Source of the DNA: Minisyncoccia bacterium
GTDB taxonomy: Bacteria > Patescibacteriota > Minisyncoccia > SW-4-49-11
Direction of reading: 5' to 3'
DNA length: 64,000 nucleotides
Assembly (NCBI GenBank): GCA_044356325.1
Contig: JBIKWJ010000002.1
Span: 94,327-158,326, forward strand
Shown: piece by piece, positions 5,800 through 33,094 of the stretch
Layout of the letters: every line of letters begins with the position of its first letter
How positions within the stretch are numbered: position 1 is the first letter of the stretch
Position numbers and translations under genes: made by a program
Notes under the pieces: generated by a model
Database searches by the model: none
The model's input: only the letters and a program-made list of their open reading frames with translations
What the model was told of the DNA's origin: nothing

Positions 5800-5829
5800 T
5801 TTCCGTGTTGGCGTTGGACGGAAACAAAT

Positions 5830-8714: not shown

Positions 8715-8985
8715 ACTTTTGTCTACGATGTATCTCATCTTATTCAGAGATAGGAAGAATAATAGATTGGGAGTGATGTTTTCGTAGCGGAGGGTTTATC
8801 CCTCCACTTCGTAGAGGGGGGTAACTTAACTGTCCTCCTTTGGAGGAGGTGACCCCTCCCATACTTCAGTTTGGGAGGGGTCGGAGGTGGATAATAAGTA
8901 GTCTATATTTTAACTAAAAATTAAAACTCTATCCACCCTCCCCCTGCGGGTACTCCCTCCGAAGGGAGACAAGTATCTGTGGCTA
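8715..8985. repeat. Mosaic hairpin array (families L, K, D, J, E and F)
   Basis: Contains tgtctacgatgtatctcatcttattcaga, cgtagcggagggtttatccctccac, gtcctcctttggaggaggtg, cccatacttcagtttgggaggg, ggaggtggataa ... ctatccaccc and ctccctccgaagggagac. Confidence 0.8.
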
Positions 8986-11019: not shown

Positions 11020-11084
11020 GATATCACAAGATATTATATCAATTTTTAGAATTTTTAGCAAGAAAAGGTGTTACGCTTAAATTT

Positions 11085-11215
11085 GTCGTAGGGGCGACCT
11101 TTCAGTCGCCAGTCCACACCCGTCACTTCGTGACACCCTCGCCAGCGAGGGACAGTTATTTTGTCCTCCCTTGGGGGAGGTGGCACGAAGTGACGGAGGA
11201 GGACATTCCTCACAA
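11085..11215. repeat. Mosaic hairpin array (families C, M, G and D)
   Basis: Contains gtaggggcgacctttcagtcgcc, gtcacttcgtgac, ccctcgccagcgaggg and gtcctcccttgggggaggtggcacgaagtgacggaggaggac. Confidence 0.8.
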
Positions 11216-13234: not shown

Positions 13235-13471
13235 TATATATCAATATTATATTTTTTCTTTGGTACAAGGTAATTATGGAGACTCCAAGCAGACTCGCAC
13301 TGCTGTAGAGGGTTTTGCAGACCCTTGCCTAACTTCTCGGCCATGGAGCCAATTACGGCTTTTAGTATAGCATAGATTCAGTTTTTAGGGAAATAGTAAG
13401 GAAAGAAAAAAGCCCACCGTCCGAAAACGGGGGTTGGGGGGGGCTTGGCATGGTATCCAGCGGAGGTAAGA

Positions 13472-13702
13472 CTAAAATACATTACCTCTTGTGAAGAGGT
13501 TGTATACCCAGCCCCCTCTCAAAGGGCCCCACCAATTACCATTATTTGGAAATGCCGGCAGTGTCCGTACAAAACCCCATCTATCTTGGGGGTAATAATA
13601 TCCTGCTTCACCCGTGTTACACCATGCTATATTCCCAATGTAGCCACCTTTCGCTGAAATGTAGCAAAAATCGTTTGGTAGGGTGTTTTGGGCATTAGTC
13701 AT
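13472..13702 (-). CDS. Cassette ORF, hypothetical W/G/Y-rich small protein (about 76 aa)
   Basis: Bounded by the conserved promoter at 13736-13766 and a terminator near 13405-13445. The track N-terminus MWYSF is the promoter -10 read as codons, so the ATG MTNAQ was chosen. Visibly GC-richer than flanks. Confidence 0.4.
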   Translation of the reverse strand: MTNAQNTLPNDFCYISAKGGYIGNIAWCNTGEAGYYYPQDRWGFVRTLPAFPNNGNWWGPLRGGWVYNLFTRGNVF

Positions 13703-13735
13703 AGTGACCAATCTCTTTGATAAAGGGTCGATAAA

Positions 13736-13766
13736 ACTATACCACACTCCTCTTATTTTGTCAAGA
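13736..13766 (-). promoter_or_regulatory. Conserved cassette promoter (TTGACAAAATAAGAGGAGTGTGGTATAGT on the minus strand)
   Basis: TTGACA, 17 nt, TGnTATAGT. Upstream is a conserved AT-rich about 100-bp leader shared with the 15340-15420 copy. Confidence 0.6.
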
Positions 13767-13904
13767 TGCGTTGTAATTTATTTATAATAATTATATCTAT
13801 TTTATCATTATTATAGCTTATTTGCTTATCTTTATACAATATTATATTTTGTTATAATTTTATGTTTTATTATTATACATTTTAACTTTCGTAGTGCTTT
13901 TGTC

Positions 13905-14110
13905 CTAAAATTCCCCTCGTTGAGGGGTGGACAGCTTCGCTGGACGGGGTGGAGTACTTTTATATTCGTAGGGTTTTTGTCCCTCCTATATTTATTTAGA
14001 AAAAACGACCTCTCAGTCGCCCGAAACCTAACCCCAAAACTTGACAAAAAAACACTACTATTATAAAATATATTTACATTTGGCGTTAGCCACGTCCCTC
14101 GTTTGCGAGG
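13905..14110. repeat. Mosaic hairpin array (families A, H, C and G)
   Basis: Contains aaaattcccctcgttgaggggtggacagcttcgctggacggggtggag, cgacctctcagtcgcccg and gtccctcgtttgcgagggc. Confidence 0.75.
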
Positions 14111-14426
14111 GCTCATTGATAAAGATTTATAAACCCTTCTTTTACTTTAGCAAAATCTATTTCATTCAAAGACCCCATTTTGTTATGTAGTCTCCTATAA
14201 TCAATTGTTCTGACCTGCTGTAAACAAGCTGTTATTCTCTTACCTTGATATTCATAGGCCACATACCAAGTACCTGTTTTATTTTTGGTAGTTGTAGGAA
14301 TAACCAAATATGTCCATTTATCTACCGTAGGTAGAAAGGAGGACATTAAAACGCTCCACCCCGTCAGGTAAGCCTGCCCAAAAAAAAACTCTATGCTATA
14401 ATATGGCTATATGCTAAATATTCTCT

Positions 14427-15075: not shown

Positions 15076-15102
15076 AAAACCGACTGCAAAGCAGTCGGTG
15101 AT
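15076..15102. terminator. Bidirectional terminator (accgactgcaaagcagtcggt)
   Basis: Perfect 9-bp stem with A and T runs. Sits between the convergent trmH-like gene and the cassette ORF. Confidence 0.6.
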
Positions 15103-15112
15103 GAAAAAGTAA

Positions 15113-15277
15113 TTAGAAAGAGGGGGGAGGGATAGGCATACCCCACTGAAGCATAAGTTGCTCATGACTAACAAGAGCATATCTAGCTTCTTCACTGTCG
15201 GGTGAAGTATTGTATCTTTGTCTCAAAATATTTAACCAATAAACAAAATGTTGAACAACAGGATGATTAACATCCAT
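15113..15277 (-). CDS. Cassette ORF, small hypothetical protein (about 54 aa)
   Basis: GGAGG lies 5 nt before the ATG (MDVNHPVV), with a TTGATA/TGnTATAGT promoter upstream. The track N-terminus MWYSF is a promoter artefact. Confidence 0.35.
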   Translation of the reverse strand: MDVNHPVVQHFVYWLNILRQRYNTSPDSEEARYALVSHEQLMLQWGMPIPPPSF

Positions 15278-15309
15278 AACATCCTCCAAAGAGCAAATTG
15301 TAAAAAAAC

Positions 15310-15337
15310 TATACCACAAATCTTAAATTTTATCAAA
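15310..15337 (-). promoter_or_regulatory. Conserved cassette promoter variant (TTGATA N17 TATAGT)
   Basis: Homologous to the 13736-13766 promoter and AT-rich leader block. Confidence 0.5.
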
Positions 15338-15439
15338 AATTATTAGCTTTTTTAGTTATCTTTACATAATATTATATTTTGTCATTATTTTTTGTTTTAT
15401 TATTATACATTTTAACTTTCGTAAGAGCACCTTGCTCTA

Positions 15440-15575
15440 AAGATTCCCCTCTCCACCTACGGTCGATAAATTGAGGGCTTTCGTCCCTCCCATACTTTAG
15501 TTTGGGAGGGGGTCGACAGCTTCGCTGGACGGGGTGGAGTGCTTTTGTATTCGTAGGGGCAACCTTTCAGGCTCC
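15440..15575. repeat. Mosaic hairpin array (families A-like, J, H and C)
   Basis: Contains cccctctccacctacggtcgataaattgagggc (inverted copy at 41790), cctcccatactttagtttgggaggg, gctggacggggtggag and cgtaggggcaacctttcaggctcc. Confidence 0.75.
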
Positions 15576-15768
15576 TATATATTATGGTATTAGAGATATT
15601 CTTATTATTAAAACCTTAGGAGATAGTAATCTCTCTTATCTACAATCTCCTCATCTCATACAAGCTATTGACAAAATAAAAATTAGTCATATACTTATAT
15701 ATGATGTTTCACATTTAAAAAGCCATGTTTTTCACAACTCTAGCAGTACTTTTAGGAGGTCCACTCCT

Positions 15769-15816
15769 ATGGGTCATGTGGGGAATACTAGCCATGTGGA
15801 AAGAAATCCCAAATGA
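15769..15816 (+). CDS. Putative 15-aa peptide (MGHVGNTSHVERNPK) with a perfect Shine-Dalgarno sequence
   Basis: AGGAGG lies 9 nt upstream of the ATG. A strong terminator at 15867-15900 follows. Highly speculative. Confidence 0.2.
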   Translation: MGHVGNTSHVERNPK

Positions 15817-15866
15817 TCCTATCGTATAGCGATACGATAAATTTATTCTTATTATTTATAAATTAA

Positions 15867-15900
15867 AGACCAGATGCCCTCGCGTATCTGGTCTTTTTAT
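15867..15900 (+). terminator. Rho-independent terminator (agaccagat..atctggtct followed by TTTTT)
   Basis: 9-bp stem plus a T-run on the plus strand. Confidence 0.6.
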
Positions 15901-15964
15901 ATCTCCATTTACAAAGATATCTCAATATATTATACTATATGAGCTCCTTCAATACCCCTCCTCA

Positions 15965-16231
15965 ATGGAAAGATTAGAACTTAGACTACCCCAAAGACTA
16001 GTAGATAGATTTCATGGTCATTCTAAAACAGCTGAGCGTACTGTTAGTGATGCTGGACGAGATGCTTTAAGTTTGTATTTGAGCATAGTATCTCTTCTAG
16101 AACGAAGGGGTGAACCTATCGTAATAGAGATAAATCCCTCCCTAAGCTACTTCACAGTACTACATGATCAAGCTGACAAAGATAAACCAGAGTATACACC
16201 TCTCTTTCCCTTCCTCAAACCCATCTCTTGA
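15965..16231 (+). CDS. Ribbon-helix-helix (CopG/Arc-like) DNA-binding protein
   Basis: N-terminal MERLELRLPQRLVDRF..SKTAERTVSDAGRDAL fits the RHH beta-strand/helix pattern. TTTACA N17 TATACT lies upstream. Confidence 0.4.
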   Translation: MERLELRLPQRLVDRFHGHSKTAERTVSDAGRDALSLYLSIVSLLERRGEPIVIEINPSLSYFTVLHDQADKDKPEYTPLFPFLKPIS

Positions 16232-16239
16232 TGGGTTTT

Positions 16240-18639: not shown

Positions 18640-18850
18640 TACTATTAATGTCCTCCTTTCTACCTACGGCAGATAAATGGAGGAGGTGGCACGGAGTGCC
18701 GGAGGTGGATTGAGCTAAAATTCCCCTCTTGAGGGGTGACAGGCTTGCCTGGCGGGGTGGAAAAACAAAATATTAATAATAACAAAACCCTTCCACCCCG
18801 TCTCCCTACTATGTAAACATAGCAGGAATCCACCCCTCAAGAGGGGAATT
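18640..18850. repeat. Mosaic hairpin array (families D/I, E, A and B)
   Basis: Contains gtcctcctttctacctacggcagataaatggaggaggtggcacggagtgccggaggtggat, aaattcccctcttgaggggtgacaggcttgcctggcggggtgg and ccacccctcaagaggggaattt. Confidence 0.8.
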
Positions 18851-18862
18851 TAATACCACCCT

Positions 18863-19663
18863 ATGACACAATCCCAAATTATATCCTTATTAAAAGAATA
18901 TCAGATAAAGCCCCTAGAGTCTTTATCCCAGAATTTTTTTATTGAAAAAGATTTGCTTATCAAAATTATTAACAAAATCAATATAGCCCCCAACTCCACT
19001 TTATTAGAAATAGGTCCAGGACTTGGCTCCCTCACCGAATTACTAGTACAGCAAAAAGTCCCCGTAATCGCGGTGGAACTGGATAAAACTTTTGCTTCTA
19101 TACTCCCTAGCATACTCGAGAATCCAGATAATCTCACCGTATATCATCAAGATATACTCAAATCCCAAGAGCTAATAGACACTATACAGACCCCTTATAC
19201 CGTAATAGCTAATATTCCTTATCATATTACGGGAGCTATAATTCGGCTACTGGTAGATAGAGATAATCCTGCCGATAGTATTAATCTCCTTATTCAAAAA
19301 GAGGTAGCCAATAATCTCTTATCTCATGAGAAATCCTTATTCCAACTTAGTGTCAATATATATGCCGATGTCAAACTTTTGTCCCATATAGCCAAGGAAT
19401 GCTTTTACCCCAAACCTAAGGTAGACTCTAGTTTTATACAACTCATACCCCATAATCGCTATGCCGAGTATAATCGAGAAGATATTATACAACTTGCCAA
19501 ATTAGCCTTTCAACAAAAGCGAAAGAAAATATCCTCTTCACTCAAACCCAAACTCACTCGACCGATAGGGGAGTATAGCTCCGAGATCCAAGCCCTCCTC
19601 TCACTCCGCCCCGAGAATCTAACTATAGATAATTGGATAGAGCTGTATCAGGGGTTGAAGTAA
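18863..19663 (+). CDS. rsmA: 16S rRNA (adenine1518/1519-N6)-dimethyltransferase RsmA/KsgA
   Basis: QNFF..D.., SAM site LEIGPGLGSLT, and NIPY catalytic motif. Confidence 0.9.
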   Translation: MTQSQIISLLKEYQIKPLESLSQNFFIEKDLLIKIINKINIAPNSTLLEIGPGLGSLTELLVQQKVPVIAVELDKTFASILPSILENPDNLTVYHQDILKSQELIDTIQTPYTVIANIPYHITGAIIRLLVDRDNPADSINLLIQKEVANNLLSHEKSLFQLSVNIYADVKLLSHIAKECFYPKPKVDSSFIQLIPHNRYAEYNREDIIQLAKLAFQQKRKKISSSLKPKLTRPIGEYSSEIQALLSLRPENLTIDNWIELYQGLK

Positions 19664-19669
19664 AAAAAG

Positions 19670-19710
19670 ACCCCGAACGCAGTTGCGAACGGGGCTTATT
19701 TTTTGGGGGA
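19670..19710. terminator. Bidirectional terminator (ccccgaacgcagttgcgaacgggg)
   Basis: Inverted repeat flanked by A and T runs. Sits between convergent rsmA and the cassette ORF. Confidence 0.55.
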
Positions 19711-19728
19711 GTCTACTGAACCTAATGG

Positions 19729-20199
19729 TCAGTCGATAGGCTCTTCTGCCATAGGGATCTCTTCGATCCCGGAAAGAGTGAGAACAAACCTCTGCCAAGG
19801 ACGTTTGTAGTTGTAAGACTCGAAGACGAATCCTGGTACTGCTACCACCAATAGTCCCCCTTCACACCTCGCTTCCGAGGTGTGCCACACCTTAGGGGTG
19901 TGGCCAGTTACCTGGCGGAAACTGGCAGCCTTTATGAGAGCAACAACCCTATCATCACCTAGTGTGGTAACCTCAACCACACATTTGTTACCTGAACTTT
20001 GGAGCTTCGCTCCAGAAGGAGCAAAGGAGCTAAGAAAAATATCCTTTCCGTACTGGTAAAGGTACTTAATACCCTCTCCTTTAATACCAAGTGTTTTCCG
20101 GGTTGCTCCGGCTGAGTATATTTGTTCGGTCAGAGGCTCTGACCGAACATAGCCGGAACCGTAGTTTTGGAATCCCATAAGTCTGTTGCTAATGAACAT
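19729..20199 (-). CDS. Cassette ORF, hypothetical protein (156 aa), GC-enriched
   Basis: ATG lies about 12-25 nt downstream of the conserved promoter at 20211-20241 with no SD. Contains GHTPKVWHTSEARCEGG. No family assigned. Composition is richer in G and C than the backbone. Confidence 0.5.
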   Translation of the reverse strand: MFISNRLMGFQNYGSGYVRSEPLTEQIYSAGATRKTLGIKGEGIKYLYQYGKDIFLSSFAPSGAKLQSSGNKCVVEVTTLGDDRVVALIKAASFRQVTGHTPKVWHTSEARCEGGLLVVAVPGFVFESYNYKRPWQRFVLTLSGIEEIPMAEEPID

Positions 20200-20210
20200 T
20201 TACAAAAACA

Positions 20211-20241
20211 ACCATATCACATTTTCCTCATTTTGTCAATG
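20211..20241 (-). promoter_or_regulatory. Conserved cassette promoter (TTGACAAAATGAGGAAAATGTGATATGGT)
   Basis: Same about 30-bp element as at 5830, 21427, 40654 and 41296. Confidence 0.6.
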
Positions 20242-20394
20242 ATTTTTGTCTAAAAGTTTTATAATATTTCTACGCAAAGTTTTTGTTTATTTTAAAATAT
20301 ATTCTTATATATAATTATGTGTTTTATATTTATGTCAAAACATAGAGTTTTCATTGTAATAATATAAAGTTAATAAAATGTAAACCCCGGAGAT

Positions 20395-20460
20395 CACGAT
20401 GGATTCCGGGGTTCTATTCAGTTGTAGTTACGTATATTTACCAGACCTCGCCAGGTCTAG
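20395..20460 (-). terminator. Tandem terminator hairpins (ccccggagatcacgatggattccgggg; agacctcgccaggtct)
   Basis: Two GC stems 3' of CDS 20465-21391 on the minus strand. Confidence 0.5.
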
Positions 20461-20464
20461 GAGC

Positions 20465-21391
20465 TCATGAGAGGAGATGTTTCTCCACCACGGCCACAAC
20501 CTCGTCGATAGTGAGCTTCGAGCTCACACCCTGTGGCGAGCCACCGATGGTCGGGGAACCACCCCAACCAGCCTCGAGAGTGTCGAGCTCCGCAAGCGCC
20601 GACTTGATGTCCGCGAACCCGCCAGAGAACTGGCAGATCGTAAACTTCTTGCAAGGCTCGCTCGGCCCCTGCCTGAAACTCGGGTTGAGCGCGACTACTA
20701 CTGGAGCAAGGGCATACCCAATGCTGAGAGCAGCACGATGCGTACTCTCTACCACCGCAATGAGGCCAAAGGAGACCATCTCGTACCTGATAGTTCCGCT
20801 TTCGAGAGCGGTGATCATGTCGATCCGCTCCCTCTCGACCTGTGTGCGATACTGTTCGGGTTCCTCACCCGCGAGCAGCCACAACTCCATCGTGGCAACA
20901 CGGTCAGCCAGCGGAACCCTGAAGTCCATGACTGCTGCCGCGATCGCCGCGAGATGGCGGGAAGACTCGGCCGTCGCCGTCTCCTCTATCCACGGGTTGT
21001 CCCGGGTCGGGAGGGGCTTCGGGCCAGAGTAGCCGCCACGCGCGAACTTGTCCGAGGTGGCGACCATCGTGACTCGCTCCATCGCGGGCTCGAGGCTTTC
21101 GCCATTCGCCCGGAGATTGAAGAGCGCCATCGCTCCGACCGCGTCGAGATCGGCGCGAACCGTCGCGAGAGTCGAGCCCTCGGGCGGAAGCTCCGCCGTC
21201 AGCGCGTCCTCGATGGCCGCACGATTGGCGTCACCGCCCGTGTGCTGGGGGTCGATGTTGAAGGTGCAACGCTCTGCGAGCGAGGGCACTGTCACTTCGA
21301 TCCCATAGACGGGGTTAGCGAACACCTTGTCGTTGGCCTCCGTGGCAGCCGAAATGTTGCGGGGGTCGAGAGTTGCGAAGCTGTAAACCAT
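20465..21391 (-). CDS. Cassette ORF, hypothetical protein (about 308 aa) of strikingly high GC (foreign-looking)
   Basis: Minus strand chosen because the conserved promoter at 21427-21457, GGAG 9 nt before ATG (MVYSFATLD) and the terminators at 20395-20460 are all minus-oriented. All six frames are open, as expected in high-GC DNA. Confidence 0.5.
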   Translation of the reverse strand: MVYSFATLDPRNISAATEANDKVFANPVYGIEVTVPSLAERCTFNIDPQHTGGDANRAAIEDALTAELPPEGSTLATVRADLDAVGAMALFNLRANGESLEPAMERVTMVATSDKFARGGYSGPKPLPTRDNPWIEETATAESSRHLAAIAAAVMDFRVPLADRVATMELWLLAGEEPEQYRTQVERERIDMITALESGTIRYEMVSFGLIAVVESTHRAALSIGYALAPVVVALNPSFRQGPSEPCKKFTICQFSGGFADIKSALAELDTLEAGWGGSPTIGGSPQGVSSKLTIDEVVAVVEKHLLS

Positions 21392-21426
21392 GATAATGAA
21401 CTCCAAATGATTGGATTACGAAAACA

Positions 21427-21457
21427 ACTATATCACATTTTCCTATTTTTGTCAATA
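21427..21457 (-). promoter_or_regulatory. Conserved cassette promoter (TTGACAAAAATAGGAAAATGTGATATAGT)
   Basis: TTGACA, 17 nt, TGnTATAGT. An AT-rich leader lies upstream. Confidence 0.6.
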
Positions 21458-21589
21458 GGTGTTGTGTGTATTGTGTTTTATTCACTTTAAACACACCTAT
21501 TTATTACCTTTATTGCTTGACTTTATTGATATTTTTATTTTGTTATAGTTTTTTGTTTTTATTGGAGTTTATATAGTGAGTGAGGTGAA

Positions 21590-22040
21590 TAATACTTGTA
21601 TTTCGTAGGGGCGACCTTTCAGTCGCCTATTTGTTCTAAAAATTCCCCTCTTGAGGGGTGCCCGTAGGGCGGGGTGGATAAAATATATTACTGAATTTTA
21701 CTCAAACACCATAGTATAGTTTTAATAACTATCCACCTCCGCCGTCGCAAATGGGATTTGCTCCTGTGAAACCTCACAGATTTGGCCAACCTTCCTCCAC
21801 GGGAAAACTCCCGTTTTCCCGACCCCTTTCCCGTGCCACCTCCTCCATTTATCTACCGTAGGTAGAAAGGAGGACAGTATATTTTTCCACCCCGTCCAGC
21901 GAAGCTGTACACCCCTCAAGAGGGGAATTTAGCTCAGTCCACCTCCGGTCACTCCTAGTGTGAACAAAATACCCCAATCCCTTCACAACAAAAACACGGG
22001 CAACTGCAAGATTGCCCCTACGGGTGTATTTGATAATTTT
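21590..22040. repeat. Large mosaic hairpin array (families C, A, E, tRNA-trailer-like, D/I and H)
   Basis: Contains cgtaggggcgacctttcagtcgcc, aaaaattcccctcttgaggggtgcccgtagggcggggtggat, ctatccacctccgcc, ccaaccttcctccacgggaaaactcccgttttcccgacccc (the same element as 3' of the tRNAs), gtgccacctcctccatttatctaccgtaggtagaaaggaggac and ccaccccgtccagcgaagctgt. Confidence 0.8.
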
Positions 22041-22434: not shown

Positions 22435-22520
22435 GCCGACACATAGTGTCGGCTGAGGGTGTGAGATGGGGTTTTTTACCCCCAATGCGGGACGAATGTC
22501 CCGAAATTTATTTAGTTGTG
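22435..22520 (-). terminator. Triple-hairpin terminator (cgggacattcgtcccg; ggggtaaaaaacccc; gccgacactatgtgtcggc followed by TTATTTTTT)
   Basis: Three consecutive inverted repeats 3' of the acidic mini-protein gene. Confidence 0.55.
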
Positions 22521-22526
22521 TGTGGA

Positions 22527-22703
22527 TCAATCGTCGCCATCAAGGCTTTCTCCGGAGTCAGGGTCAGTGGTGCCGTCGGAGTCAGGGTCAGTGGTGCCGT
22601 CGGAGTCAGGGTCGCTAGGTTCTTCGCTTCCTTGCTGGGGTTGCTGTTGGAGCTGTTCTTGTGCGGTGGCGGTGGGGTCGAGAACTGCGATTGCTGCGGA
22701 CAT
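22527..22703 (-). CDS. High-GC acidic tandem-repeat mini-protein (58 aa: MSAAIAVLDPTATAQEQLQQQPQQGSEEPSDPDSDGTTDPDSDGTTDPDSGESLDGDD)
   Basis: Own translation of the minus strand. The DNA contains a 24-bp tandem repeat (ggagtcagggtcagtggtgccgtc, about 2.5 copies). The terminator is minus-oriented. Plus-strand track ORFs in the same block were rejected. Confidence 0.4.
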   Translation of the reverse strand: MSAAIAVLDPTATAQEQLQQQPQQGSEEPSDPDSDGTTDPDSDGTTDPDSGESLDGDD

Positions 22704-22854
22704 TGTACTCCATATGAGAAGTGATGCCCAGATCTAGATCAAAAAGATCTTAGCTGGACATGTATAAATATATTATAATCTGTAATTCTTGTCAAGAGTA
22801 AATTTTACTCTTATTTACTCTTACAAAAAATATATTTTATGTTATACTTTTTAT

Positions 22855-23532
22855 ATGGCTAATAAAAAATCAAATATCAAAAATTCGCCGGAGACTAGTA
22901 CGCAAAAGTACTTATCTATCGACACTATTCAAGACAGCGTAGTAATTCTCAAAGATGGGGGATTGAGGGCTGTTTTGATGACGTCTTCCATTAATTTTGA
23001 CCTCAAATCTTCTGATGAGCAAGATGCTATTATTTATGCCTATCAGAATTTTATTAATTCTCTTGACTTCCCTCTTCAAATACAGGTGAGCTCCAGGGTT
23101 TTGAATATTAATGGTTATGTCAATTATCTTTCTGAATTTCAACAAACTCAGCAAAATGATTTGTTACGTCTTCAGATTGGAGAATACTCTCAATTTATTC
23201 AAGAATTAGTTACAGATGCTAATATTGTAAATAAAACTTTTTATGTAATAATTCCTTTTGATCCTGTTGAGACAAAAGAGGGTCTTTTTGATAAGCTTAG
23301 CAATGCGCTTAATCCAAAAATTGCAGTCCGTTATAAAAAAGAAGAGTTTGAAAAGTACAAAACTCAGCTTTGGCAAAGAGTAAATGGGGTTATGTATGGA
23401 CTTAAAAGAGCCGGAATCTATATGACTCCTCTTAATACGCAAGAATTAATTGAATTATATTATTCTTTTTATAATCCTGATTCCAGACCCACCGAGTCCC
23501 TTCATGATTTGGCTGAATTAGATATTACCTAA
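22855..23532 (+). CDS. virB4: VirB4/TrbE-family type IV secretion ATPase, N-terminal portion (split gene)
   Basis: Pattern of a VirB4 N-domain. Stop TAA, then ATG 5 nt later opening the ATPase ORF. Start set to MANKK. Confidence 0.55.
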   Translation: MANKKSNIKNSPETSTQKYLSIDTIQDSVVILKDGGLRAVLMTSSINFDLKSSDEQDAIIYAYQNFINSLDFPLQIQVSSRVLNINGYVNYLSEFQQTQQNDLLRLQIGEYSQFIQELVTDANIVNKTFYVIIPFDPVETKEGLFDKLSNALNPKIAVRYKKEEFEKYKTQLWQRVNGVMYGLKRAGIYMTPLNTQELIELYYSFYNPDSRPTESLHDLAELDIT

Positions 23533-23536
23533 TACT

Positions 23537-25366
23537 ATGGCATCCAAGCAAGCACAAACTAATCCAGAAATTGCTGATTTCCTCAAGGGCCAAAATACTC
23601 TTCGAGATCTTTTGGCACCCGCGAGTATTTTGGTAGATCCCAAATATATTCAAATTGGATCTCAATTTGCTCGTACTATTTTTGTGATGACATATCCTCG
23701 ATTTCTCGTCACAGGATGGTTTAGCCCACTTATTACTCTTGATTATGTCTTGGATATTTCTATGTTCCTCTATCCTATGGATAGTGGGGTTATATTAAAG
23801 AATCTGAGAACTCAAGTAACCCGTTTTCAAGCTCAAATTAGTATTGCACAAGAAAAAGGTCTCGTGCGAGATCCCATGGTGGAAACCGCTTATCAGGATG
23901 CGGAGAATCTCAGAGACCAATTACAACAGGGTACTGAGAGATTTTTCCGCTTTGGGCTCTATATTACGGTTTATGCAGATAGTCTTCCTCAATTAGAGAA
24001 GAATATTTCTCAGATAGATAGTATGCTTCAAACCAAAATGGTATATTCTAAACCTTGTTTATTCCAAACTGAACAGGGTTTTCAATCGACTATTCCTCTT
24101 CTCAAAGATGATTTAGCCATTGCTAATAATCTTAATACTTCACCCCTATCTACTACATTTCCTTTTATTTCAGCTAGTATTTCCTCTAATAAAGGGATTT
24201 TGTATGGAATTAATCGCCATAATAATAGCCTTATTCTCTTTGATAGATTTTCTATGGAAAATGCCAATGAGGTTATTTTTGCCAAATCAGGAGCGGGGAA
24301 AAGTTATCTTGCTAAGCTTGAAATATTGAGGCATCTGATGCTCAATATTGATGTTCTGGTTATTGATCCTGAAAATGAATATTCTTATCTTACTGAGGCA
24401 GTTGGTGGAACATTTATCAAAATATCTCTCAATTCTAATCAACATATTAATCCTTTTGATTTACCAAATCCTCGTGATGATGAGAATCCTGCCGATTTAC
24501 TCAAATCTAATATTGCGGACTTATTAAGTATGCTCAAATTAATGCTTGAGGGGAGAAATGATGAGGACAAATTCCACGCTGAAGAAGAGGCTATACTAGA
24601 CCGAGCTCTTTATGAGACATATGCCAGCAAAGATATTAGCATTGAATCTCCTAATTATGAAAATAAAGAAATTCCAACTCTTTCTGATTTAGAAAACATT
24701 CTCAATAATATGGAGGGGGGAGAAAGCCTTGCTATTCGTCTTTCCAAATATACTACTGGGAGTTTTAGCGGGTTTATCAATGAGCCTACCAATATTAATT
24801 TTGCCAATCAGCTCGTAGTATTCAATACTCGAGATATGGAGGACGAATTACAGCCATTAGCTATGTTTATCGTAACTCAATATATTTGGAAAGAGGTAAG
24901 AAGAACTCTCAAAAAGCGTATTCTAGTAGTAGATGAAGCTTGGGTGATGATGAAGGATAAATCAGTAGCTTCATTCCTATTCTCACTCGCCAAAAGAGCT
25001 CGTAAATATTATCTTGGACTTACCACTATTACTCAGGATATTGCTGATTTTCTCGCCTCAGAATACGGAAAAGCAATTTTGACCAACTCTTCTATACAAA
25101 TTCTCCTCAAACAATCTCCTGCCTCTATAGATATTATTAAAGATACTTTTTATCTTACTGAAGAGGAAAAATTCCTTCTTCTCGAGTCAGATGTGGGAGA
25201 AGGAATATTTTTTGCGGGACTAAAACATGCTGCTATCAAAGTAGTAGCCTCATATGGAGAGGATCAGATAATCACCTCAGATCCGGAACAATTACTCAGA
25301 ATCCAGGCTGCCAAAGCTCAAATCACTGAGGAAGGAAATTCCGACCCATTCTCATTAAATTTATAA
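23537..25366 (+). CDS. virB4: VirB4/TrbE/CagE-family type IV secretion ATPase, C-terminal ATPase portion
   Basis: Walker A AKSGAGKS and Walker B VVDEAW, with the surrounding VirB4-type sequence. 609 aa. Confidence 0.8.
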   Translation: MASKQAQTNPEIADFLKGQNTLRDLLAPASILVDPKYIQIGSQFARTIFVMTYPRFLVTGWFSPLITLDYVLDISMFLYPMDSGVILKNLRTQVTRFQAQISIAQEKGLVRDPMVETAYQDAENLRDQLQQGTERFFRFGLYITVYADSLPQLEKNISQIDSMLQTKMVYSKPCLFQTEQGFQSTIPLLKDDLAIANNLNTSPLSTTFPFISASISSNKGILYGINRHNNSLILFDRFSMENANEVIFAKSGAGKSYLAKLEILRHLMLNIDVLVIDPENEYSYLTEAVGGTFIKISLNSNQHINPFDLPNPRDDENPADLLKSNIADLLSMLKLMLEGRNDEDKFHAEEEAILDRALYETYASKDISIESPNYENKEIPTLSDLENILNNMEGGESLAIRLSKYTTGSFSGFINEPTNINFANQLVVFNTRDMEDELQPLAMFIVTQYIWKEVRRTLKKRILVVDEAWVMMKDKSVASFLFSLAKRARKYYLGLTTITQDIADFLASEYGKAILTNSSIQILLKQSPASIDIIKDTFYLTEEEKFLLLESDVGEGIFFAGLKHAAIKVVASYGEDQIITSDPEQLLRIQAAKAQITEEGNSDPFSLNL

Positions 25367-25372
25367 CATAAT

Positions 25373-26491
25373 ATGAAATTCTTCAAAAACAAAATAGTAC
25401 TTATAATCACCATTGGAGTTATACCACTTATTATTATCGGTATACTTATTTTTGGATATATTGGTAATCGTAATACCGAAAAAGCAACTGATACCGCTAA
25501 GACTGAGAATAAGCCAGCAGATACTACTCGTCCTGCTACCAAAGTTTCAGATAAAGCCATTGTTAATGCTACTATTGATGCTAGTAATAGTATAAAATAT
25601 TATTCTCTTGATAAAGGACAAACTTTTCAAATTCCTGCCAGTGGAGGGGATGCCAAAATATTAGATGAGACCAGTTTAGCTGGTATAACTTCAGTTGAGT
25701 GGGCACCCACAGCCCCCTATGTATTGACCCAAATCAAAGATAGAGTATATGCCTTTAATTATAGCACTCGCAAATCTTTTGCATTTCCTATTGATGTGAT
25801 ATCAGGGCAATTCCTCTCAGATAATCGAGTTTTTTATACCTTTAAAAATAATGCTGTGGGAGGAGATGCTGCTGTTGAGCTATCAGTAAGTAATCCTGAT
25901 GGGACAGATTGGAAAAAAATTATTACTCTTACTTCTAGCGCGGTATATCTCAAAGGAATTCCCTTTCAGAATAGTATAAGTCAAACTCTTATTCCTAGTA
26001 GCTATAGAGCTTCTGCTTTAAGGATTATCGATATCAATACTGGGGAAGCAAAATCTGTATTAGAAGAAAAAAATGGACTGAATGTATCTTGGTCTCCAGA
26101 TGGAGAAAAAGGAATTATCTCCTATACCACTGAGCGCGGAGGATCTACATTAGGTCTTTCTGTAATCAATAAAACAGGTATTGAAGTTGCTAAAATTGAA
26201 AATGTAGGCACAATAGCTGAAAAAATTGCTTGGAGCCCAGATAGTAAAACAGCCTATTTTACCAAAGCAGAAGTTGCTAATACCAAAATTCTTCCTGATG
26301 ATTATTATAGTTCTAATCTTGGAGACTTTAATGAAAGTTTATACAAAGTAGATATTGCAACCGCCACCGCTTCACAATTATCCACCAATATTGGAAATGT
26401 TGATTCTAAAGATTTATTCCTCAATGCCGCGGGAACAGAATTATTCTTTACCAATCGCAAAGATAATAATTTGTATAAAGTATCTTTGTAG
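25373..26491 (+). CDS. Membrane-anchored TolB-like/PD40 beta-propeller protein
   Basis: N-terminal TM helix. Repeated WSPDG/WSPDS PD40-type blades (VSWSPDGEKGIISY and IAWSPDSKTAYFT). Confidence 0.5.
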   Translation: MKFFKNKIVLIITIGVIPLIIIGILIFGYIGNRNTEKATDTAKTENKPADTTRPATKVSDKAIVNATIDASNSIKYYSLDKGQTFQIPASGGDAKILDETSLAGITSVEWAPTAPYVLTQIKDRVYAFNYSTRKSFAFPIDVISGQFLSDNRVFYTFKNNAVGGDAAVELSVSNPDGTDWKKIITLTSSAVYLKGIPFQNSISQTLIPSSYRASALRIIDINTGEAKSVLEEKNGLNVSWSPDGEKGIISYTTERGGSTLGLSVINKTGIEVAKIENVGTIAEKIAWSPDSKTAYFTKAEVANTKILPDDYYSSNLGDFNESLYKVDIATATASQLSTNIGNVDSKDLFLNAAGTELFFTNRKDNNLYKVSL

Positions 26492-26515
26492 TATAGAATT
26501 ATAAAGCTCCCCCCA

Positions 26516-26547
26516 AACCTAGCCCATCAGCTAGGCTTTTTTATTTT
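26516..26547 (+). terminator. Terminator (cctagcccatcagctagg followed by CTTTTTT)
   Basis: Read from sequence. Confidence 0.55.
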
Positions 26548-26654
26548 GAAGTATCTTTAAGATCATATCCATGACAAGATATATTGTCTATTACTATTGA
26601 CATTTTGTAATTTTTGTGATATAGTCTTTTTTGTACCTTGCAATTGGAGCCGTT

Positions 26655-27038
26655 ATGGCTATCCATATCATCAAAAACCTTCTTGCTAAAATCAATGGGC
26701 AAGAAAGAAGGCAAAGAGAGGTGACGATAATCCGCTTCCGTGATCATAAAGTCACTGCCAGACTATTGGCAATTGCCCTAGAAAAAGGTATGGAATTAGT
26801 TCCAAATTTTCTAGACCTCACTGATTATATCACATATTTAACTTTGACTTTTAAAGACAACACTACTCTCAGTATCTTTCTCCTACCTGAATTAAGAAAA
26901 TTTGGTTTTGAGAAACAAGCAGACTCATTAGGGGCTGTAACGGATAATTGGTATCTACCATTATCTAAAAATGAGTCCGCTATGAAAGAATATATCAAAC
27001 TATTATGGGATCTTTTCCACACACCAGATCCCCAATGA
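26655..27038 (+). CDS. Hypothetical protein (about 127 aa)
   Basis: GGAG lies 6 nt before the ATG (MAIHIIKNL), and the terminator at 27061-27090 follows. Confidence 0.45.
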   Translation: MAIHIIKNLLAKINGQERRQREVTIIRFRDHKVTARLLAIALEKGMELVPNFLDLTDYITYLTLTFKDNTTLSIFLLPELRKFGFEKQADSLGAVTDNWYLPLSKNESAMKEYIKLLWDLFHTPDPQ

Positions 27039-27060
27039 GCTAGCCTTGGCTCAATCCACA

Positions 27061-27090
27061 AAAGCCGTAGTATCACTACGGCTTTTTTCT
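27061..27090 (+). terminator. Terminator (aaagccgtagtatcactacggcttttttc)
   Basis: 10-bp stem plus a T-run. Confidence 0.6.
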
Positions 27091-27172
27091 TTTCACTACA
27101 CCAAAAACTTTACAAAAATTATTTTATATGCTATTTTTTGATAGTACTAAAAAGTCAAGGAGGGTTTAGGCT

Positions 27173-27646
27173 ATGTCTGTGACAATCACAGGTGTAAGTT
27201 TCACAACATTAGATACACATACAAGACAACCTACAGCATATCCTGCTCAAGGTTCTGATGAAATCTACCTTCTACCAAGTGGAGCTGAATTTAGGGTAAC
27301 AGGAAATAATGACTTTATTGCATATCCTACCGTTTCCCAATTCATAACCTTATTTCCAAAATTAATTGGTATTAAAAGATTATGGCCATGGCAAGGTTTG
27401 GGTTGTATTCTTAATACTTGGTTTAACATTAGTATAAGTAATAAAAACCCTGAAATTCATTGTGAATTTCGTGTTGATACTTTGGGCAATATATTTGCAT
27501 ACTATGCTTCTCCTTTAATGATAGTTAGACTTTGGAAATATGAGGGTATTTATTACATTGAAATTGTAGTTCCCCGTGATAGTAGAGATGGGTACTATTA
27601 CAATATTATAAGAAATGCTATCGGATTGCATAAAGTATTGAGGTAA
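27173..27646 (+). CDS. Hypothetical protein (157 aa)
   Basis: AGGAGG lies 8 nt upstream of the ATG. No family recognised. Confidence 0.5.
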   Translation: MSVTITGVSFTTLDTHTRQPTAYPAQGSDEIYLLPSGAEFRVTGNNDFIAYPTVSQFITLFPKLIGIKRLWPWQGLGCILNTWFNISISNKNPEIHCEFRVDTLGNIFAYYASPLMIVRLWKYEGIYYIEIVVPRDSRDGYYYNIIRNAIGLHKVLR

Positions 27647-30139: not shown

Positions 30140-30375
30140 TCTATTATTTGTATGAGATGATAAGATCGTAGATAAGTTATGCTTTCGTAGCGGAGGGTTT
30201 ATCCCTCCACTATTGTTCTTATGTAGGGGCGACCTTTCAGTCGCCCGTAGTGTTTTTGTACCTAACTGGCGAGTCTTTAAGTCCATCCCATACATTTTTT
30301 GGGATGGGGTGTCGATGAAATCGACGGATGTGGACAGGCGACTGCAAGGTCTCCCCTACAGAAAGAAAAAACCCT
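30140..30375. repeat. Mosaic hairpin array with an inverted pair of family-C hairpins flanking nested palindromes
   Basis: tgtatgagatgataagatcgtagataag (L), cgtagcggagggtttatccctccac (K), tgtaggggcgacctttcagtcgcccgtag at 30223-30250 and its inverted partner gacaggcgactgcaaggtctcccctaca at 30333-30360. These enclose tcccatacattttttgggatgggg and gtcgatgaaatcgac. Confidence 0.8.
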
Positions 30376-30899: not shown

Positions 30900-31190
30900 A
30901 GGGTTGATAAGTTTTTAGTAGGGGCGACCTATGTTTTAAAAATTCCCCTCTTGAGGGGTGGCTTCCTGCTATGTTTAAATAGCGGGGAGACGGGGTGGAG
31001 TGTCTTTATCTTATTTATTTTTATTTTCTTTCCACCCCGGCCAGCAGAACTGTCCACCCCTCAAGAGGGGAATTTAAGCTCAGTACAAACCTACCTCTAC
31101 ACAGTCCACCCTCCTAAATAAATATAGGAGGAACTTAAAGCTCACCCACTCGTCTACCGTAGGTAGAAGGGAGGGCAGTAAATATGCCGA
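30900..31190. repeat. Mosaic hairpin array (families C, A, H and I)
   Basis: Contains agtaggggcgacct, aaaaattcccctcttgaggggtgg, ggggagacggggtggagtg, ccaccccggccagc, ccacccctcaagaggggaattt and cgtctaccgtaggtagaagggagg. Confidence 0.8.
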
Positions 31191-31269
31191 TATCTTTTAA
31201 ACTACTAAAGAAAACCCTTACTAGCTTAGGTCAGTAAAAAGAAAAAGAGCTCGCACATAGTACGAGCTC

Positions 31270-31800
31270 TCAACAGCTTTTATGAAAAAGGATTATAGCA
31301 CCCGCAACAGCGAGTACCAACCCAACCCAATAGGGTCTGCCCAACAAAAACATTATCCCTATTACTACAAAGATTGTCCCTAATACAACCTTGGTGAAGA
31401 AATAGCCCAGAATTATTAATATAATTACTCCTATCAATACCAGAAATGGTGGGTGTTTTATTAGCATAAATATAAAAACGGCTATGACCAAAAGAGATAC
31501 GCATATAATCCACAATACCCCTACCCAGAGCATAATTAGTCCGGAGGTTTCCGGAAATATATCTATTAATTTCATTATTCCCGCAAGTACCAGGAGTGCT
31601 AAAATTATAGCAAAGAGATCTGATCCATACCACCTACCCCTACCATCTTTTTTTACAATAACCTCGCTTTTCCTTGCATCTCCGTCTTGCTTTAATCGAG
31701 CTAAGCGAAAGTCACATTCTTGACTTAGCATGGATAGAGCTAGGCGAGAGTCACATTTTTCTTGGTTACCAATTAATGGTTCTGATTGAGATTGATGCAC
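31270..31800 (-). CDS. Hypothetical membrane protein (176 aa) with an internally repeated N-terminus
   Basis: GTG start 9 nt after AGGAGG. Conserved promoter at 31858-31889. About 26-bp near-direct repeat in the coding 5' end (gctaagcgaaagtcacattcttgact / gctaggcgagagtcacatttttcttgg). Four TM helices. Confidence 0.5.
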   Translation of the reverse strand: MHQSQSEPLIGNQEKCDSRLALSMLSQECDFRLARLKQDGDARKSEVIVKKDGRGRWYGSDLFAIILALLVLAGIMKLIDIFPETSGLIMLWVGVLWIICVSLLVIAVFIFMLIKHPPFLVLIGVIILIILGYFFTKVVLGTIFVVIGIMFLLGRPYWVGLVLAVAGAIILFHKSC

Positions 31801-31857
31801 TGGATGGAACCTCCTTTTGTAAAAGTTCTAATGAGCGGAATAGCTCATCACACGAAG

Positions 31858-31889
31858 ACTATAGCATATTTTATCAATTTTGTCAATAG
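31858..31889 (-). promoter_or_regulatory. Conserved cassette promoter (TTGACAAAATTGATAAAATATGCTATAGT)
   Basis: TTGACA, 17 nt, TGnTATAGT. Confidence 0.6.
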
Positions 31890-31937
31890 TAATTATCTTA
31901 TTTTTATAGCTTATTATATATCATTTGATTTTTCCAA

Positions 31938-32135
31938 TACTTCCGAGGTCTATCTGTTTCTGCTAGAATAGCAATCACATCGATAATAGAAAAATACCAT
32001 TTTTCTTGATCAACATACCAAATACTACGAACCTGTTTTTTTCAAATAGTTTGATTGCTATATCTTTTTTCATAGAATTAGCTTAGATATATTTATTATA
32101 TCTCTTTTGTCGAGAATTGTGCTATATGCACTCAA
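31938..32135 (-). pseudogene. Truncated duplicate of the dinD-like gene's promoter and first about 50 codons
   Basis: About 200 bp nearly identical to 32818-33020. Own translation gives MKKDIAIKLFEKKQVRSIWYVDQEKWYFSIIDVIAILAETDRPRKYW then stop. Confidence 0.6.
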
Positions 32136-32964: not shown

Positions 32965-33094
32965 AGAATTAGCTTAGATGTATTTATTATACTCTTTTGT
33001 CCAGAATTGTGCTATATGGATAGTATATTTTTGTAAAGGTCTTATTATTGATAATTCTCATCTTATTGAAATCTATATTATGTGTTGTTATGTA

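Follow-up and report, generated by a model that had tools for sequence, protein, structure and literature searches.

The locus described here raises the question of why a GC-poor genome should carry conspicuously GC-rich coding sequence next to ksgA: the sequence could have been acquired from another organism, could be an old resident of the site or could be an artefact of assembly. The window, i.e. the whole 64-kb stretch of DNA that was analysed, has an overall GC content of 0.361; in it the original prediction had placed a foreign block of roughly 60% GC carrying two minus-strand genes, ORF A and ORF B, each wired to a native promoter.

Composition and expression signals of the GC-rich region

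Both minus-strand ORFs are present (Table 1), and the GC-rich island is real. ORF B deviates from its host in composition as well as in codon usage (GC 0.625 versus 0.361 for the window; GC3 0.75 versus 0.25 in the native gene for IF2 and 0.25-0.37 in neighbouring native genes); its first and second codon positions have GC of 0.63 and 0.49, and its peak value in 200-nt windows is 0.695. ORF A shows mild elevation only (GC 0.48, GC3 0.48), and in the AT-rich spacer at 20200-20400 GC falls to 0.215, so that ORF A and ORF B are two separate units, not a single block. Nor is GC-richness restricted to the two ORFs, as had been supposed: a patch at 22450-22720 reaches 0.58, while the value of ∼0.5 at 21600-22030 is explained by hairpin repeat modules, which are native intergenic repeats occurring all over the window.

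The further claim that ORF B is open in all six frames did not survive inspection: two frames are open, the sense frame and one of the antisense frames, and the remaining four contain 3, 4, 8 and 17 stops. A dN/dS of ∼0.15-0.2 in the ORF B family indicates purifying selection and hence a real protein-coding gene. As this value fits the minus-strand protein, and as one open antisense frame is expected at such GC, an antisense or dual-coding gene within ORF B was rejected.

An island of this kind could appear if reads of a high-GC organism were misjoined to the contig. Many of the contigs that carry an ORF B homologue measure just 1-3 kb, as is usual for sequence that several genomes have in common and that can cause assemblies to break or misjoin. 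However, both junctions are 100% identical across four independent assemblies made from differing samples and with differing pipelines (JGI 3300037508, 3300044636 and 3300044608; Logan SRR27428684), the diverged relative L068 has the same order of promoter, ORF B, 3′ motif and ksgA, and each junction coincides precisely with functional signals, the ribosome binding site and ATG at one end and the stop codon and hairpin at the other. A chimera, ruled out at the assembly level, is scarcely conceivable, and we regard this explanation as effectively refuted.

The regulatory part of the original prediction was borne out. A conserved 35-nt promoter block precedes each of the two ORFs (no such match in 100 shuffles), and further related copies are found at ∼5824-5855, 13733-13764, 15305-15336, 31860-31890, 40654-40685 and 41299-41330. 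The ORF B copy is native to the lineage, occurring at the same position in the related genomes L138, L141, L139 and L068; the ORF A copy ends 5 nt upstream of the annotated ATG, so the ORF A mRNA leader should be very short or absent. The 5′UTR of ORF B, in which GGAG sits 10-13 nt upstream of the ATG, is homologous both to that of an unrelated gene in L138 and to that of ORF B in L068. Minus-strand hairpins lie 3′ of both ORFs (fold z-scores −3.6 and −2.6); a simple terminator scan gave no match at these two because their loops are long. The 22-nt boundary hairpin TAGACCTGGCGAGGTCTGGTAA has a single occurrence in the window, and its motif also follows unrelated genes in L139 and L141 as well as ORF B in L068. 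No known RNA was found with Rfam in the 18-24 kb part of the window.

Table 1. Features of the region between ksgA and the TraC/VirB4 genes, in window coordinates
Feature	Position	Strand	Basis or details
ksgA/rsmA, left backbone edge	18863..19663	+	Pfam RrnaAD; blastn against L138, L141 and L139
Hairpin terminator common to convergent ksgA and ORF A	19664..19700	.	Sequence; minus-strand fold z −2.63
ORF A, 156 aa	19729..20199	-	GC 0.48; all-beta orphan protein; separate slot cassette
ORF A promoter	20205-20239	-	−35 TTGACA 20234-20239; 17-nt spacing; TG-extended −10 TATGGT 20211-20216
Terminator-like hairpin 3′ of ORF B, then U-rich tract	20382..20414	-	Fold
Conserved 3′ boundary hairpin TAGACCTGGCGAGGTCTGGTAA	20438..20459	-	5 nt past ORF B stop codon
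ORF B, 308 aa	20465..21391	-	GC 0.625, GC3 0.75; putative phosphoesterase of DHH/DHHA1 fold; probably acquired coding sequence
Native 5′UTR of ORF B	21392..21420	-	Homology to L138 and L068 5′UTRs; GGAG at 21401-21404
ORF B promoter	21421-21455	-	−35 TTGACA 21450-21455; 17-nt spacing; TG-extended −10 TATAGT 21427-21432
GC-rich hairpin repeat modules	21596..22030	.	Repeat families D8-D15, I2 and I3; GC profile
TraC-like and VirB4-like ATPase genes, right backbone edge	22789..25366	+	Pfam PF26593, DUF87, P-loop_TraG; synteny

The slot between ksgA and the TraC/VirB4 genes

The VirB4-like protein of the window falls into the same 90% cluster as Candidatus Elulimicrobium humile, and the host genome is a member of the Patescibacteria related to Candidatus Elulimicrobium. 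A backbone in which KsgA and TraC/VirB4 enclose a slot of variable content is common to the sister genomes L137/138, L141/142 and L139/140, with KsgA 79-94% identical; beyond 13 relatives, KsgA identity to other genomes is at most 56%. Slot content is unrelated among the sisters (one gene of 260 aa, one of 235 aa, or one of 134 aa accompanied by others), while the promoter and 5′UTR are common to them and the 3′ hairpin to some only. The closest sister, L138 (KsgA 94% identical at the amino acid level), is collinear with the window to 19675 and again from 21401; there the homologous promoter and 5′UTR precede the unrelated 260-aa gene. ORF B is absent from the slot in all of these sisters and present in L068, in the same slot and with the same promoter, 5′UTR and 3′ motif. 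For the other cassette proteins of the window, and for the genes that fill the slot in the sisters, no relatives were found in any locus examined.

ORF A had also been predicted to be foreign, which is not clearly so. Its homologues form 2 clusters only, and in L008/L009 a homologue of 70% amino acid identity is the sole occupant of this slot, again preceded by the same promoter. No significant family was retrieved for it from Pfam, NCBIfam, PHROGs or PADLOC, and the AF2 model (pLDDT 50.8) was too low in confidence for structure search. We characterized ORF A as an orphan cassette belonging to the pool of genes found in this slot.

The region between ksgA and the TraC/VirB4 cluster is best explained as a hypervariable slot holding single-gene expression units, in each of which a lineage-specific strong promoter copy and a short 5′UTR precede the coding sequence and hairpin terminators follow it. 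Two such units occupy it in the present genome, ORF A from the flexible pool of the lineage and ORF B as a probable import. That the sisters use the same frame of promoter, ribosome binding site and terminator for unrelated genes suggests a flexible genome of interchangeable single-gene expression units.

Origin of the ORF B coding sequence

The nearest allele of ORF B, in L057, has nucleotide homology to the window only at ∼21370-20490, i.e. within the coding sequence. Together with the L138 promoter and 5′UTR in front of an unrelated gene, this upholds the prediction of an acquired coding sequence in the resident cassette framework. ORF B is thus likely to be a horizontally acquired and partly ameliorated coding sequence captured behind a native promoter. 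On this reading only the coding sequence is foreign; the transfer itself is of an ordinary kind, and what is unusual is how cleanly the swap is limited to that sequence.

As to the donor, the original prediction had named a high-GC host bacterium, such as an actinobacterium carrying the CPR cell. The composition of ORF B would agree with such a source, and distant homologues (40-45% amino acid identity) do occur in high-GC alphaproteobacterial MAGs, where this composition is native; these are, however, the nearest non-CPR relatives. Every homologue of at least 50% identity comes from a contig that has either neighbouring genes of CPR type or a CPR name, the close homologues that bear a name are without exception from Patescibacteria, and no actinobacterial homologue is among the named hits (most database proteins are unnamed, so this absence is not absolute). 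Among the best matches, which reach 83-85%, is one from a Liptonbacteria genome: the L050 allele (83% in amino acids) has GC3 of 0.89 and adjoins genes for SecD, SecF and sigma70 with GC3 of 0.76-0.82, which belong to 90% clusters named Candidatus Liptonbacteria, the genome having ∼60% GC. Another close allele is carried by a Candidatus Kaiserbacteria contig (L103). The native GC of the Liptonbacteria and Kaiserbacteria contigs is 0.58-0.64, and the idea that the GC of ORF B is above that of every host genome was rejected on this ground. No match to ORF B was found by tblastn in phage and plasmid collections. A transfer from a high-GC host bacterium is therefore very improbable. Given that the named close homologues are all from Patescibacteria and that the 83% allele is native in Liptonbacteria, the donor was most likely another CPR lineage and not an actinobacterial host. 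Best hits of similar GC within the lineage of the host, which were expected to speak against transfer, were not seen; the hits point to CPR-to-CPR transfer. In IMG/VR we found three distant relatives only (27-45%), one of which, L054, has neighbouring genes with matches to phage families, making a phage link of the ORF B family marginal.

A different history was suggested by comparison of L068 with the window. ORF B (dN 0.15, dS 0.84) has diverged about as much as the adjacent ksgA (dN 0.16, dS 1.38), which would allow a single old capture with later losses instead of a recent import, and five alleles, including the one in L068, have the junction signature MVYSF...KHLL[ST] in common. ORF B could accordingly be an old, vertically inherited resident of the slot, lost or replaced in several sisters, with a high GC content intrinsic to the family, due to GC-biased gene conversion from frequent recombination or to selection on mRNA, and carrying no trace of a foreign donor. 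Such an intrinsic cause would agree with the GC excess over flanking sequence (>0.10 in 47 of the 64 CPR loci), with recombination among the alleles (PHI test, p<0.001) and with GC3 values of 0.6-0.95 kept despite mostly saturated synonymous sites (median pS 0.77); a one-off transfer followed by passive amelioration may be insufficient for such persistence. The ORF B mRNA also folds slightly better than shuffled sequences, although this z-score of −2.67 is weak and comes from 20 shuffles only.

Still, long residence does not easily account for the lack of ORF B in the sister whose KsgA is 94% identical. In a neighbour-joining tree, built without support values, the alleles found in the slot are polyphyletic, each being closer to alleles of other contexts; the window ORF B is closer to alleles in ribozyme context (85%) than to the slot allele of L068 (78%), and ORF B is 78-85% identical across hosts with KsgA at most ∼56% identical. 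The Liptonbacteria and Kaiserbacteria alleles, with their native composition, are a sufficient source of GC. A subclade with fully host-like GC3 exists within the family, showing that the gene is able to ameliorate; this subclade, along with the correlation between the GC3 of the gene and the GC of its flanks (rho 0.55), agrees with what amelioration predicts. We thus consider old residence unlikely, albeit deserving of serious attention, and prefer horizontal acquisition.

In the Liptonbacteria-like genome an ORF B of native composition would be transcribed within hammerhead-punctuated arrays behind a structured leader. The coding sequence in the window would have come from such another CPR lineage, the closest alleles including this Liptonbacteria-like Parcubacteria one (∼60% GC), and it would have arrived alone or alone survived. 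The swap could have proceeded by recombination through conserved flanks, leaving the imported gene under the resident promoter and ribosome binding site, and the decay of GC3 would since have begun (from 0.89 to 0.75).

The ORF B family and its comparison with known systems

The ORF B family is large, with 668 homologues in a word-indexed search, 809 clusters at 50% identity and >50 homologues at 78-85% identity to ORF B. The AF2 model of ORF B (pLDDT 89.6) has the two-domain DHH plus DHHA1 fold; its closest known counterparts are NrnA nanoRNase/pAp phosphatase, TM1595, PggH, the GdpP catalytic domain, archaeal PAP phosphatase, CRISPR-associated NrN and the RecJ core. Asp/His clusters are situated at the ends of beta-strands (D9, E32, D47-P-Q-H50, D81-L-D83 and D114), and the Gly-rich C-terminal motif GWGGSPTIGGSPQG resembles GGGH. 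D81xD83, D47-P-Q-H50, D114 and G275-W-G-G...G-G-S-P-Q-G are invariant in the family, and H218 is nearly so. In one relative the protein carries a fused Csx3 domain, an arrangement that nucleases of nucleotide signals can also have. On the other hand, the N-terminal domain has only four strands, and the motifs differ in order and identity (DPQH, not DHH; GGS, not GGGH). At the sequence level ORF B gave no significant family in Pfam, NCBIfam, PHROGs or PADLOC, nothing relevant in phmmer and profile searches of PDB and, like 42 family members, no match to Pfam DHH (PF01368) or DHHA1 (PF02272) at E-values up to 1. We predict that ORF B encodes a metal-dependent DHH/DHHA1-superfamily phosphoesterase, with a nucleotide or short oligonucleotide as the putative substrate. 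This large family of DHH/DHHA1 fold has no Pfam model and appears to be undescribed in the libraries searched.

Type III hammerheads occur next to relatives of ORF B, on one flank or on both, 45 in 100 loci and all on the ORF B strand (Rfam RF00008, E-values 6.6e-8 to 1e-4), and a conserved structured leader of ∼135 nt that matches no known RNA in Rfam precedes these genes. Their regular association with type III hammerheads in CPR genomes and the leader RNA likewise appear to be undescribed in the libraries searched. In the window no hammerhead was found with Rfam gathering and E-value thresholds, a pattern search or a custom covariance model. Among neighbouring genes, TrmB adjoins ORF B in 20 of 43 loci; an ORF B-TrmB association was rejected, as pairwise identities are uncorrelated (rho 0.07). 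Separately, the identities of an 815-aa neighbour with a GNAT domain, absent from the window, correlate with those of ORF B (rho 0.66, 8 loci).

In the gene arrays of prophages and mobile elements of bacteria described by Perreault et al. (2011, PMC3088659), hammerheads flank single genes whose identity varies, ardA among them. The relatives of ORF B are alike in bearing type III hammerheads, with putative cleavage, on the coding strand. In contrast, their arrays are located in CPR chromosomes near TrmB, Pth or tmRNA genes with no recognisable prophage, and ORF B of the window, devoid of a hammerhead, has its own promoter and terminator.

The interest of the probable capture of ORF B is moderate and lies chiefly at the level of the family. 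Gene flow in CPR bacteria, which are ultra-small and host-dependent, is poorly understood, and the ORF B locus offers a concrete and checkable case of probable transfer between phyla; the DHH-fold family, the hammerhead association and the leader RNA bear on the long-debated function of hammerhead ribozymes in bacteria. One could speculate further that ORF B marks a so far undescribed pool of mobile single-gene cassettes circulating between CPR phyla, travelling in most lineages as arrays that hammerheads cut into single-gene mRNAs, with a new structured leader, and exchanged one coding sequence at a time between promoter/5′UTR and 3′-hairpin anchors in Elulimicrobium-like genomes. The DHH-like protein would then be a phosphodiesterase destroying nucleotide signals (anti-defence or signalling control), and GC-richness would owe its persistence to biased gene conversion driven by recombination instead of to the ancestry of a donor. 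This picture as a whole is a long shot.

In the model of Lawrence and Ochman, horizontally acquired genomic islets reportedly undergo amelioration. ORF B resembles such islets in being a compositional outlier, absent at the syntenic site of the closest relative and with donor-like composition elsewhere, and in the spread of GC3 across recipients from 0.92 down to a host-like 0.2. Acquired DNA is usually AT-richer than its host, whereas ORF B is GC-richer; moreover, it is trimmed to the coding sequence within a pre-existing frame of promoter, ribosome binding site and terminator, and no integrase, transposase or att-type repeat was seen within 10 kb on either side.

The slot may also be compared with integrons. 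No Pfam family of IntI-type integrases or recombinases is among the genes called within the same 10-kb flanks, and the hairpin of the slot is far shorter than attC. Integron cassettes are usually promoterless, whereas each unit of the slot has its own promoter. What the two systems have in common is that single-gene units are swapped at one locus and that a short conserved 3′ hairpin is found on different cassettes.

Two genes in a shared slot beside ksgA

In 200-nt windows, a sharp GC peak of 0.57-0.695 at 20.4-21.4 kb stands out from the window mean of 0.361 and coincides with ORF B, the gene for a putative DHH/DHHA1-fold phosphoesterase. GC at third codon positions (GC3) of ORF B is far above that of the adjacent native genes (IF2, 0.25; ksgA, 0.37; TraC-like, 0.26); therefore the anomaly lies in codon choice and not in amino-acid content alone. 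The original prediction, a single foreign block of ~60% GC at 19700-21470, fits ORF B but is overstated as one block, since the neighboring ORF A has a GC of only 0.48 and the spacer between the two genes one of 0.215. Also, ORF B is not open in all six frames as had been claimed: apart from the sense frame, just one of the antisense frames lacks stops, the remaining four having 3, 4, 8 and 17. A dN/dS of ~0.15-0.2 shows that it is a real protein-coding gene. A chimera was ruled out at the assembly level: four assemblies, of which three are JGI samples and one is a Logan run, have contigs that encode the exact ORF A protein, and all four match the window over both junctions at 100% identity with no mismatches.

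A KsgA search identified sister genomes, close relatives of the host with 94, 83 and 79% amino acid identity. Their contigs share the backbone UvrD, SpoU, RbfA, IF2, DUF4446, KsgA, slot, TraC-like, VirB4-like, a 366-372-aa gene and two Wzy genes, while the slot itself contains an unrelated 241/260-aa gene (L137/L138), an unrelated 235-aa gene (L141/L142) or a 134-aa gene with a 1404-aa DEAD-like protein, PemK and others (L139/L140). Homology to L138, the closest sister, ends at 19675, 12 nt past the ksgA stop codon, and restarts at 21401 with the promoter and 5′-UTR, which in L138 (...ttgacgaaattaggaaaatgtgatatatttgttttcgtaatccaatctatggag...ATG) precede the 260-aa gene. A 22-nt hairpin motif, TAGACCTGGCGAGGTCYGGTAA, is situated 5 nt past the ORF B stop and, in L139 and L141, also directly 3′ of the slot genes, which are unrelated. 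In a further relative, L068 (KsgA fragment 79% identical to that of the window and 93% to that of L139), we observed promoter, ORF B (78% aa), hairpin motif and ksgA, without ORF A; in L008 and L009 this promoter and ksgA enclose nothing but an ORF A homologue (70% aa). Differing genes within a shared promoter/hairpin frame thus mark a slot of interchangeable single-gene units in conserved regulatory flanks; the window carries two of these units in tandem.

The expected promoter copy ahead of each ORF was found as a 35-nt block, TTGACAAAA..AGGAAAATGTGATAT.GTTGTTTT, with an extended -10 TG in both copies and no match in 100 shuffles. The GGAG is indeed present, 10-13 nt upstream of the start codon of ORF B, and stable hairpins 3′ of both genes agree with the predicted minus-oriented terminators. 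The annotated ORF A start codon is just 12 nt past the -10 hexamer (20199-20216), a distance that would imply a leaderless or nearly leaderless mRNA. In its homologue P0122 the gene-caller start is at the position of Met8, with homology reaching further upstream, to residue 2.

Likely source of ORF B and timing of its proposed import

In an alignment to L057, whose allele is the nearest available (84% aa), nucleotide identity of 80-93% starts at about codon 8 and ends shortly before the stop, with none outside this span; ORF B thus appears to be a transplant of coding sequence only. A word-indexed search gave 668 homologues, and an exhaustive one 809 clusters at 50% identity. Those with a named source come from Patescibacteria (Paceibacterota, Minisyncoccales, Nomura-, Taylor-, Uhr-, Woese- and Moraniibacteria); alphaproteobacterial MAGs contain distant relatives only (40-45%). 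The family includes more than 50 homologues of 78-85% identity, whereas KsgA drops to ≤56% past the thirteenth relative; at the loci, ORF B averages 58-63% identity versus 33% for TrmB-like and 30% for 815-aa neighbors. Judged by these identities, its conservation across hosts is far above that of a housekeeping gene.

In 64 non-redundant CPR (Patescibacteria radiation) loci with flanks of at least 4 kb, median GC was 0.62 for the gene versus 0.45 for the flank (excess >0.10 in 47 of 64), and gene GC3 correlated with flank GC (rho 0.55); one subclade has host-like GC3 of 0.16-0.36. The idea that ORF B exceeds any host genome in GC was dropped, as L050 and L103 provide high-GC CPR contexts. The L050 allele (83% aa, GC3 0.89) adjoins SecD, SecF and sigma70 genes of GC 0.59-0.62 and GC3 0.76-0.82, which fall into 90% clusters named Candidatus Liptonbacteria (e.g. 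strain GWC1_60_9); L103 is Candidatus Kaiserbacteria, with flank GC of 0.54-0.64. Both groups are Parcubacteria, inside the Patescibacteria group. High-GC CPR genomes thus have close alleles as native genes and are a sufficient source of the ORF B composition. The donor was therefore most likely another CPR lineage. The suggested high-GC actinobacterial host finds no support, given the Patescibacterial sources of the named close homologues and the 40-45% identity of non-CPR relatives. Of the two foreign genes said to have been captured, ORF B stands, as GC-rich coding sequence in a cassette-like slot, wired to the native promoter; ORF A belongs, as an orphan, to the pool of the slot itself and is not demonstrably foreign.

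The main uncertainty is the timing. Import into the window genome could be recent, as suggested by the absence of ORF B from the closest sister and by the neighbor-joining allele tree (residues 8-300), where alleles bearing the junction signature of the slot, MVYSF...KHLL[ST], do not group together. By identity, the window allele is closer to alleles of other contexts (85%) than to that of L068 (78%). It is also possible that the capture is older and took place in the Elulimicrobium-like lineage, with later loss, replacement and recombination between alleles, as supported by L068, which carries ORF B in the same slot. The VirB4-like protein of the host falls into one 90% cluster with that of Candidatus Elulimicrobium humile (described in bioRxiv 10.1101/826941), so the two are related. 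For 18 close alleles the PHI statistic is 0.6235, below the permuted 0.698 ± 0.0056, a result that indicates recombination. Synonymous sites are saturated in most allele pairs (median pS 0.77), and dS between ORF B and its nearest relatives is 0.5-0.9. The GC3 spread in low-GC recipients, from 0.92 to ~0.2, fits differing residence times; biased gene conversion may contribute to the lasting GC-richness.

Predicted function and other variable units of the window

Residues D47-P-Q-H50, R79-x-D81-L-D83, D114 and G275-W-G-G-S-P..G-G-S-P-Q-G are invariant in the family, and E215-S-T-H218-R is conserved (E215 and H218 nearly invariant), in agreement with a putative metal-dependent phosphoesterase whose Gly-rich motif would bind substrate. 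No Pfam domain was detected in the homologues, and no sequence profile tied the family to DHH, so its membership is at fold level only. P0134 (800 aa) combines an AAA_22 ATPase with CRISPR-associated Csx3 and with a domain of the ORF B family that is 47% identical and retains every motif; the ORF B homologue P0208 is fused to a GNAT domain, which also ends the frequent 815-aa neighbor. These fusions are a weak hint that the substrate may be a nucleotide or oligonucleotide.

Looser promoter copies (near-consensus, similar spacer, TTGACAAAA..GGAAAATGTGGTATA) precede six other small ORFs, for which no relatives were found among any loci compared. Several lie in stretches not alignable to L138, e.g. 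13451-14391 and 15087-16235; therefore there seem to be many variable promoter-led single-gene slots. A third GC-rich unit encodes a highly acidic protein in which GTTDPDSD is repeated in tandem; L139/L140 have homologous DNA (52-aa gene), and L138 and L141 lack it. Every sister genome has the type-IV-secretion-like cluster as part of its conserved backbone; here the cluster is therefore no mobile-element marker. Intergenic regions are filled with GC-rich hairpin modules of a few recurring types (e.g. aattcccctcttgaggggtg, ggggcgacctttcagtcgcc, gtcctcctttctacctacggtagataaatggaggag), which flank variable cassettes and cause local GC bumps; these modules look like lineage-specific REP-type repeat families.

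Features of the window and of loci with ORF B relatives
Feature	Sequence	Coordinates	Strand	Remarks
ORF B	window	20465-21391	-	308 aa counted from ATG; GC 0.625; GC1/2/3 0.63/0.49/0.75
ORF A	window	19729-20199	-	156 aa; GC 0.48; GC3 0.48
Promoter block, ORF A	window	20205-20239		TTGACA-17-TATGGT
Promoter block, ORF B	window	21421-21455		TTGACA-17-TATAGT
Six small ORFs, each with its promoter	window	5491-5855, 13472-13764, 15113-15336, 31270-31890, 40413-40685, 41154-41330	-	46-176 aa; GC 0.39-0.46 in five, 0.38 in the 176-aa one
Acidic ORF	window	22527-22703	-	58 aa; GC 0.60
Promoter, acidic ORF	window	22767-22795		TTGACA-17-TATATT
Type-IV-secretion-like cluster	window	22789-27646		TraC-like gene, VirB4-like ATPase, three unannotated genes
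GC-rich hairpin modules	window	1580-1700, 2100-2225, 3004-3042, 5391-5423, 6283-6430, 8772-8972, 11083-11204, 13909-14383, 15443-15576, 18645-18852, 21596-22030, 30175-30362, 30932-31197, 40794-41056, 41438-41814, 45263-45394	both	
Tandem duplication, ~645 nt	window	40655-41668		two copies, 94-99% identical; promoter copy, small ORF, hairpin modules
Repeat pair, ~175 nt	window	31927-32100, 32817-32991		95-96% identical, 890 nt apart
Same-strand gene arrays with type III hammerheads between	CPR chromosomes	L037:9386-11571, L039:7753-9981, L103:1730-5587, L010:9852-11065, L026:4520-5781		
Leader RNA	ORF B relatives	L050:1318-1455, L051:5866-6003, L053:1737-1874, L057:4866-5003, others		alignment A3
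tmRNA gene	two CPR genomes	L001:9267-9615, L020:53-402		directly upstream of ORF B
GNAT-domain protein and TrmB-like pair	L003, L014, L015, L017, L026, L039, L042, L048			~1-5 kb upstream of ORF B

Ribozymes and leader RNA around ORF B relatives

Many ORF B homologues have CUGAUGA...GAAA cores down- and upstream, matching Rfam Hammerhead_3 with E-values from 6.6e-8 to 1e-4 (one above gathering threshold). Our covariance model, built from ten hammerheads, detected 45 across 100 loci, every one of them on the same strand as ORF B, and none in the window. L037, L039, L103, L010 and L026 carry arrays of types such as gene-hammerhead-ORF B-hammerhead-gene-hammerhead; pth closes those of L037 and L039, and in L010 both flanking ribozymes carry a 40-nt stem II insertion and form near-identical direct repeats. 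Most alleles 78-84% identical to that of the window have a hammerhead 166-188 nt upstream. In the closest ones the ~135-nt leader between hammerhead and start codon is conserved, with four helices and 8 base pairs showing compensatory changes; it has no Rfam match, is absent from the window and is a candidate new cis-regulatory RNA.

Upstream of ORF B arrays, a 700-970-aa protein with a terminal GNAT domain recurs together with a divergent TrmB-like regulator. The tmRNA gene, a classical island insertion site, directly precedes ORF B in two CPR genomes, with no integrase seen nearby.

Among the papers listed by our literature search on the ribozyme context, none links hammerheads with CPR. The arrays of ORF B relatives match what has been described for prophage regions, where the single genes bordered by hammerheads vary in identity (PMC3088659).
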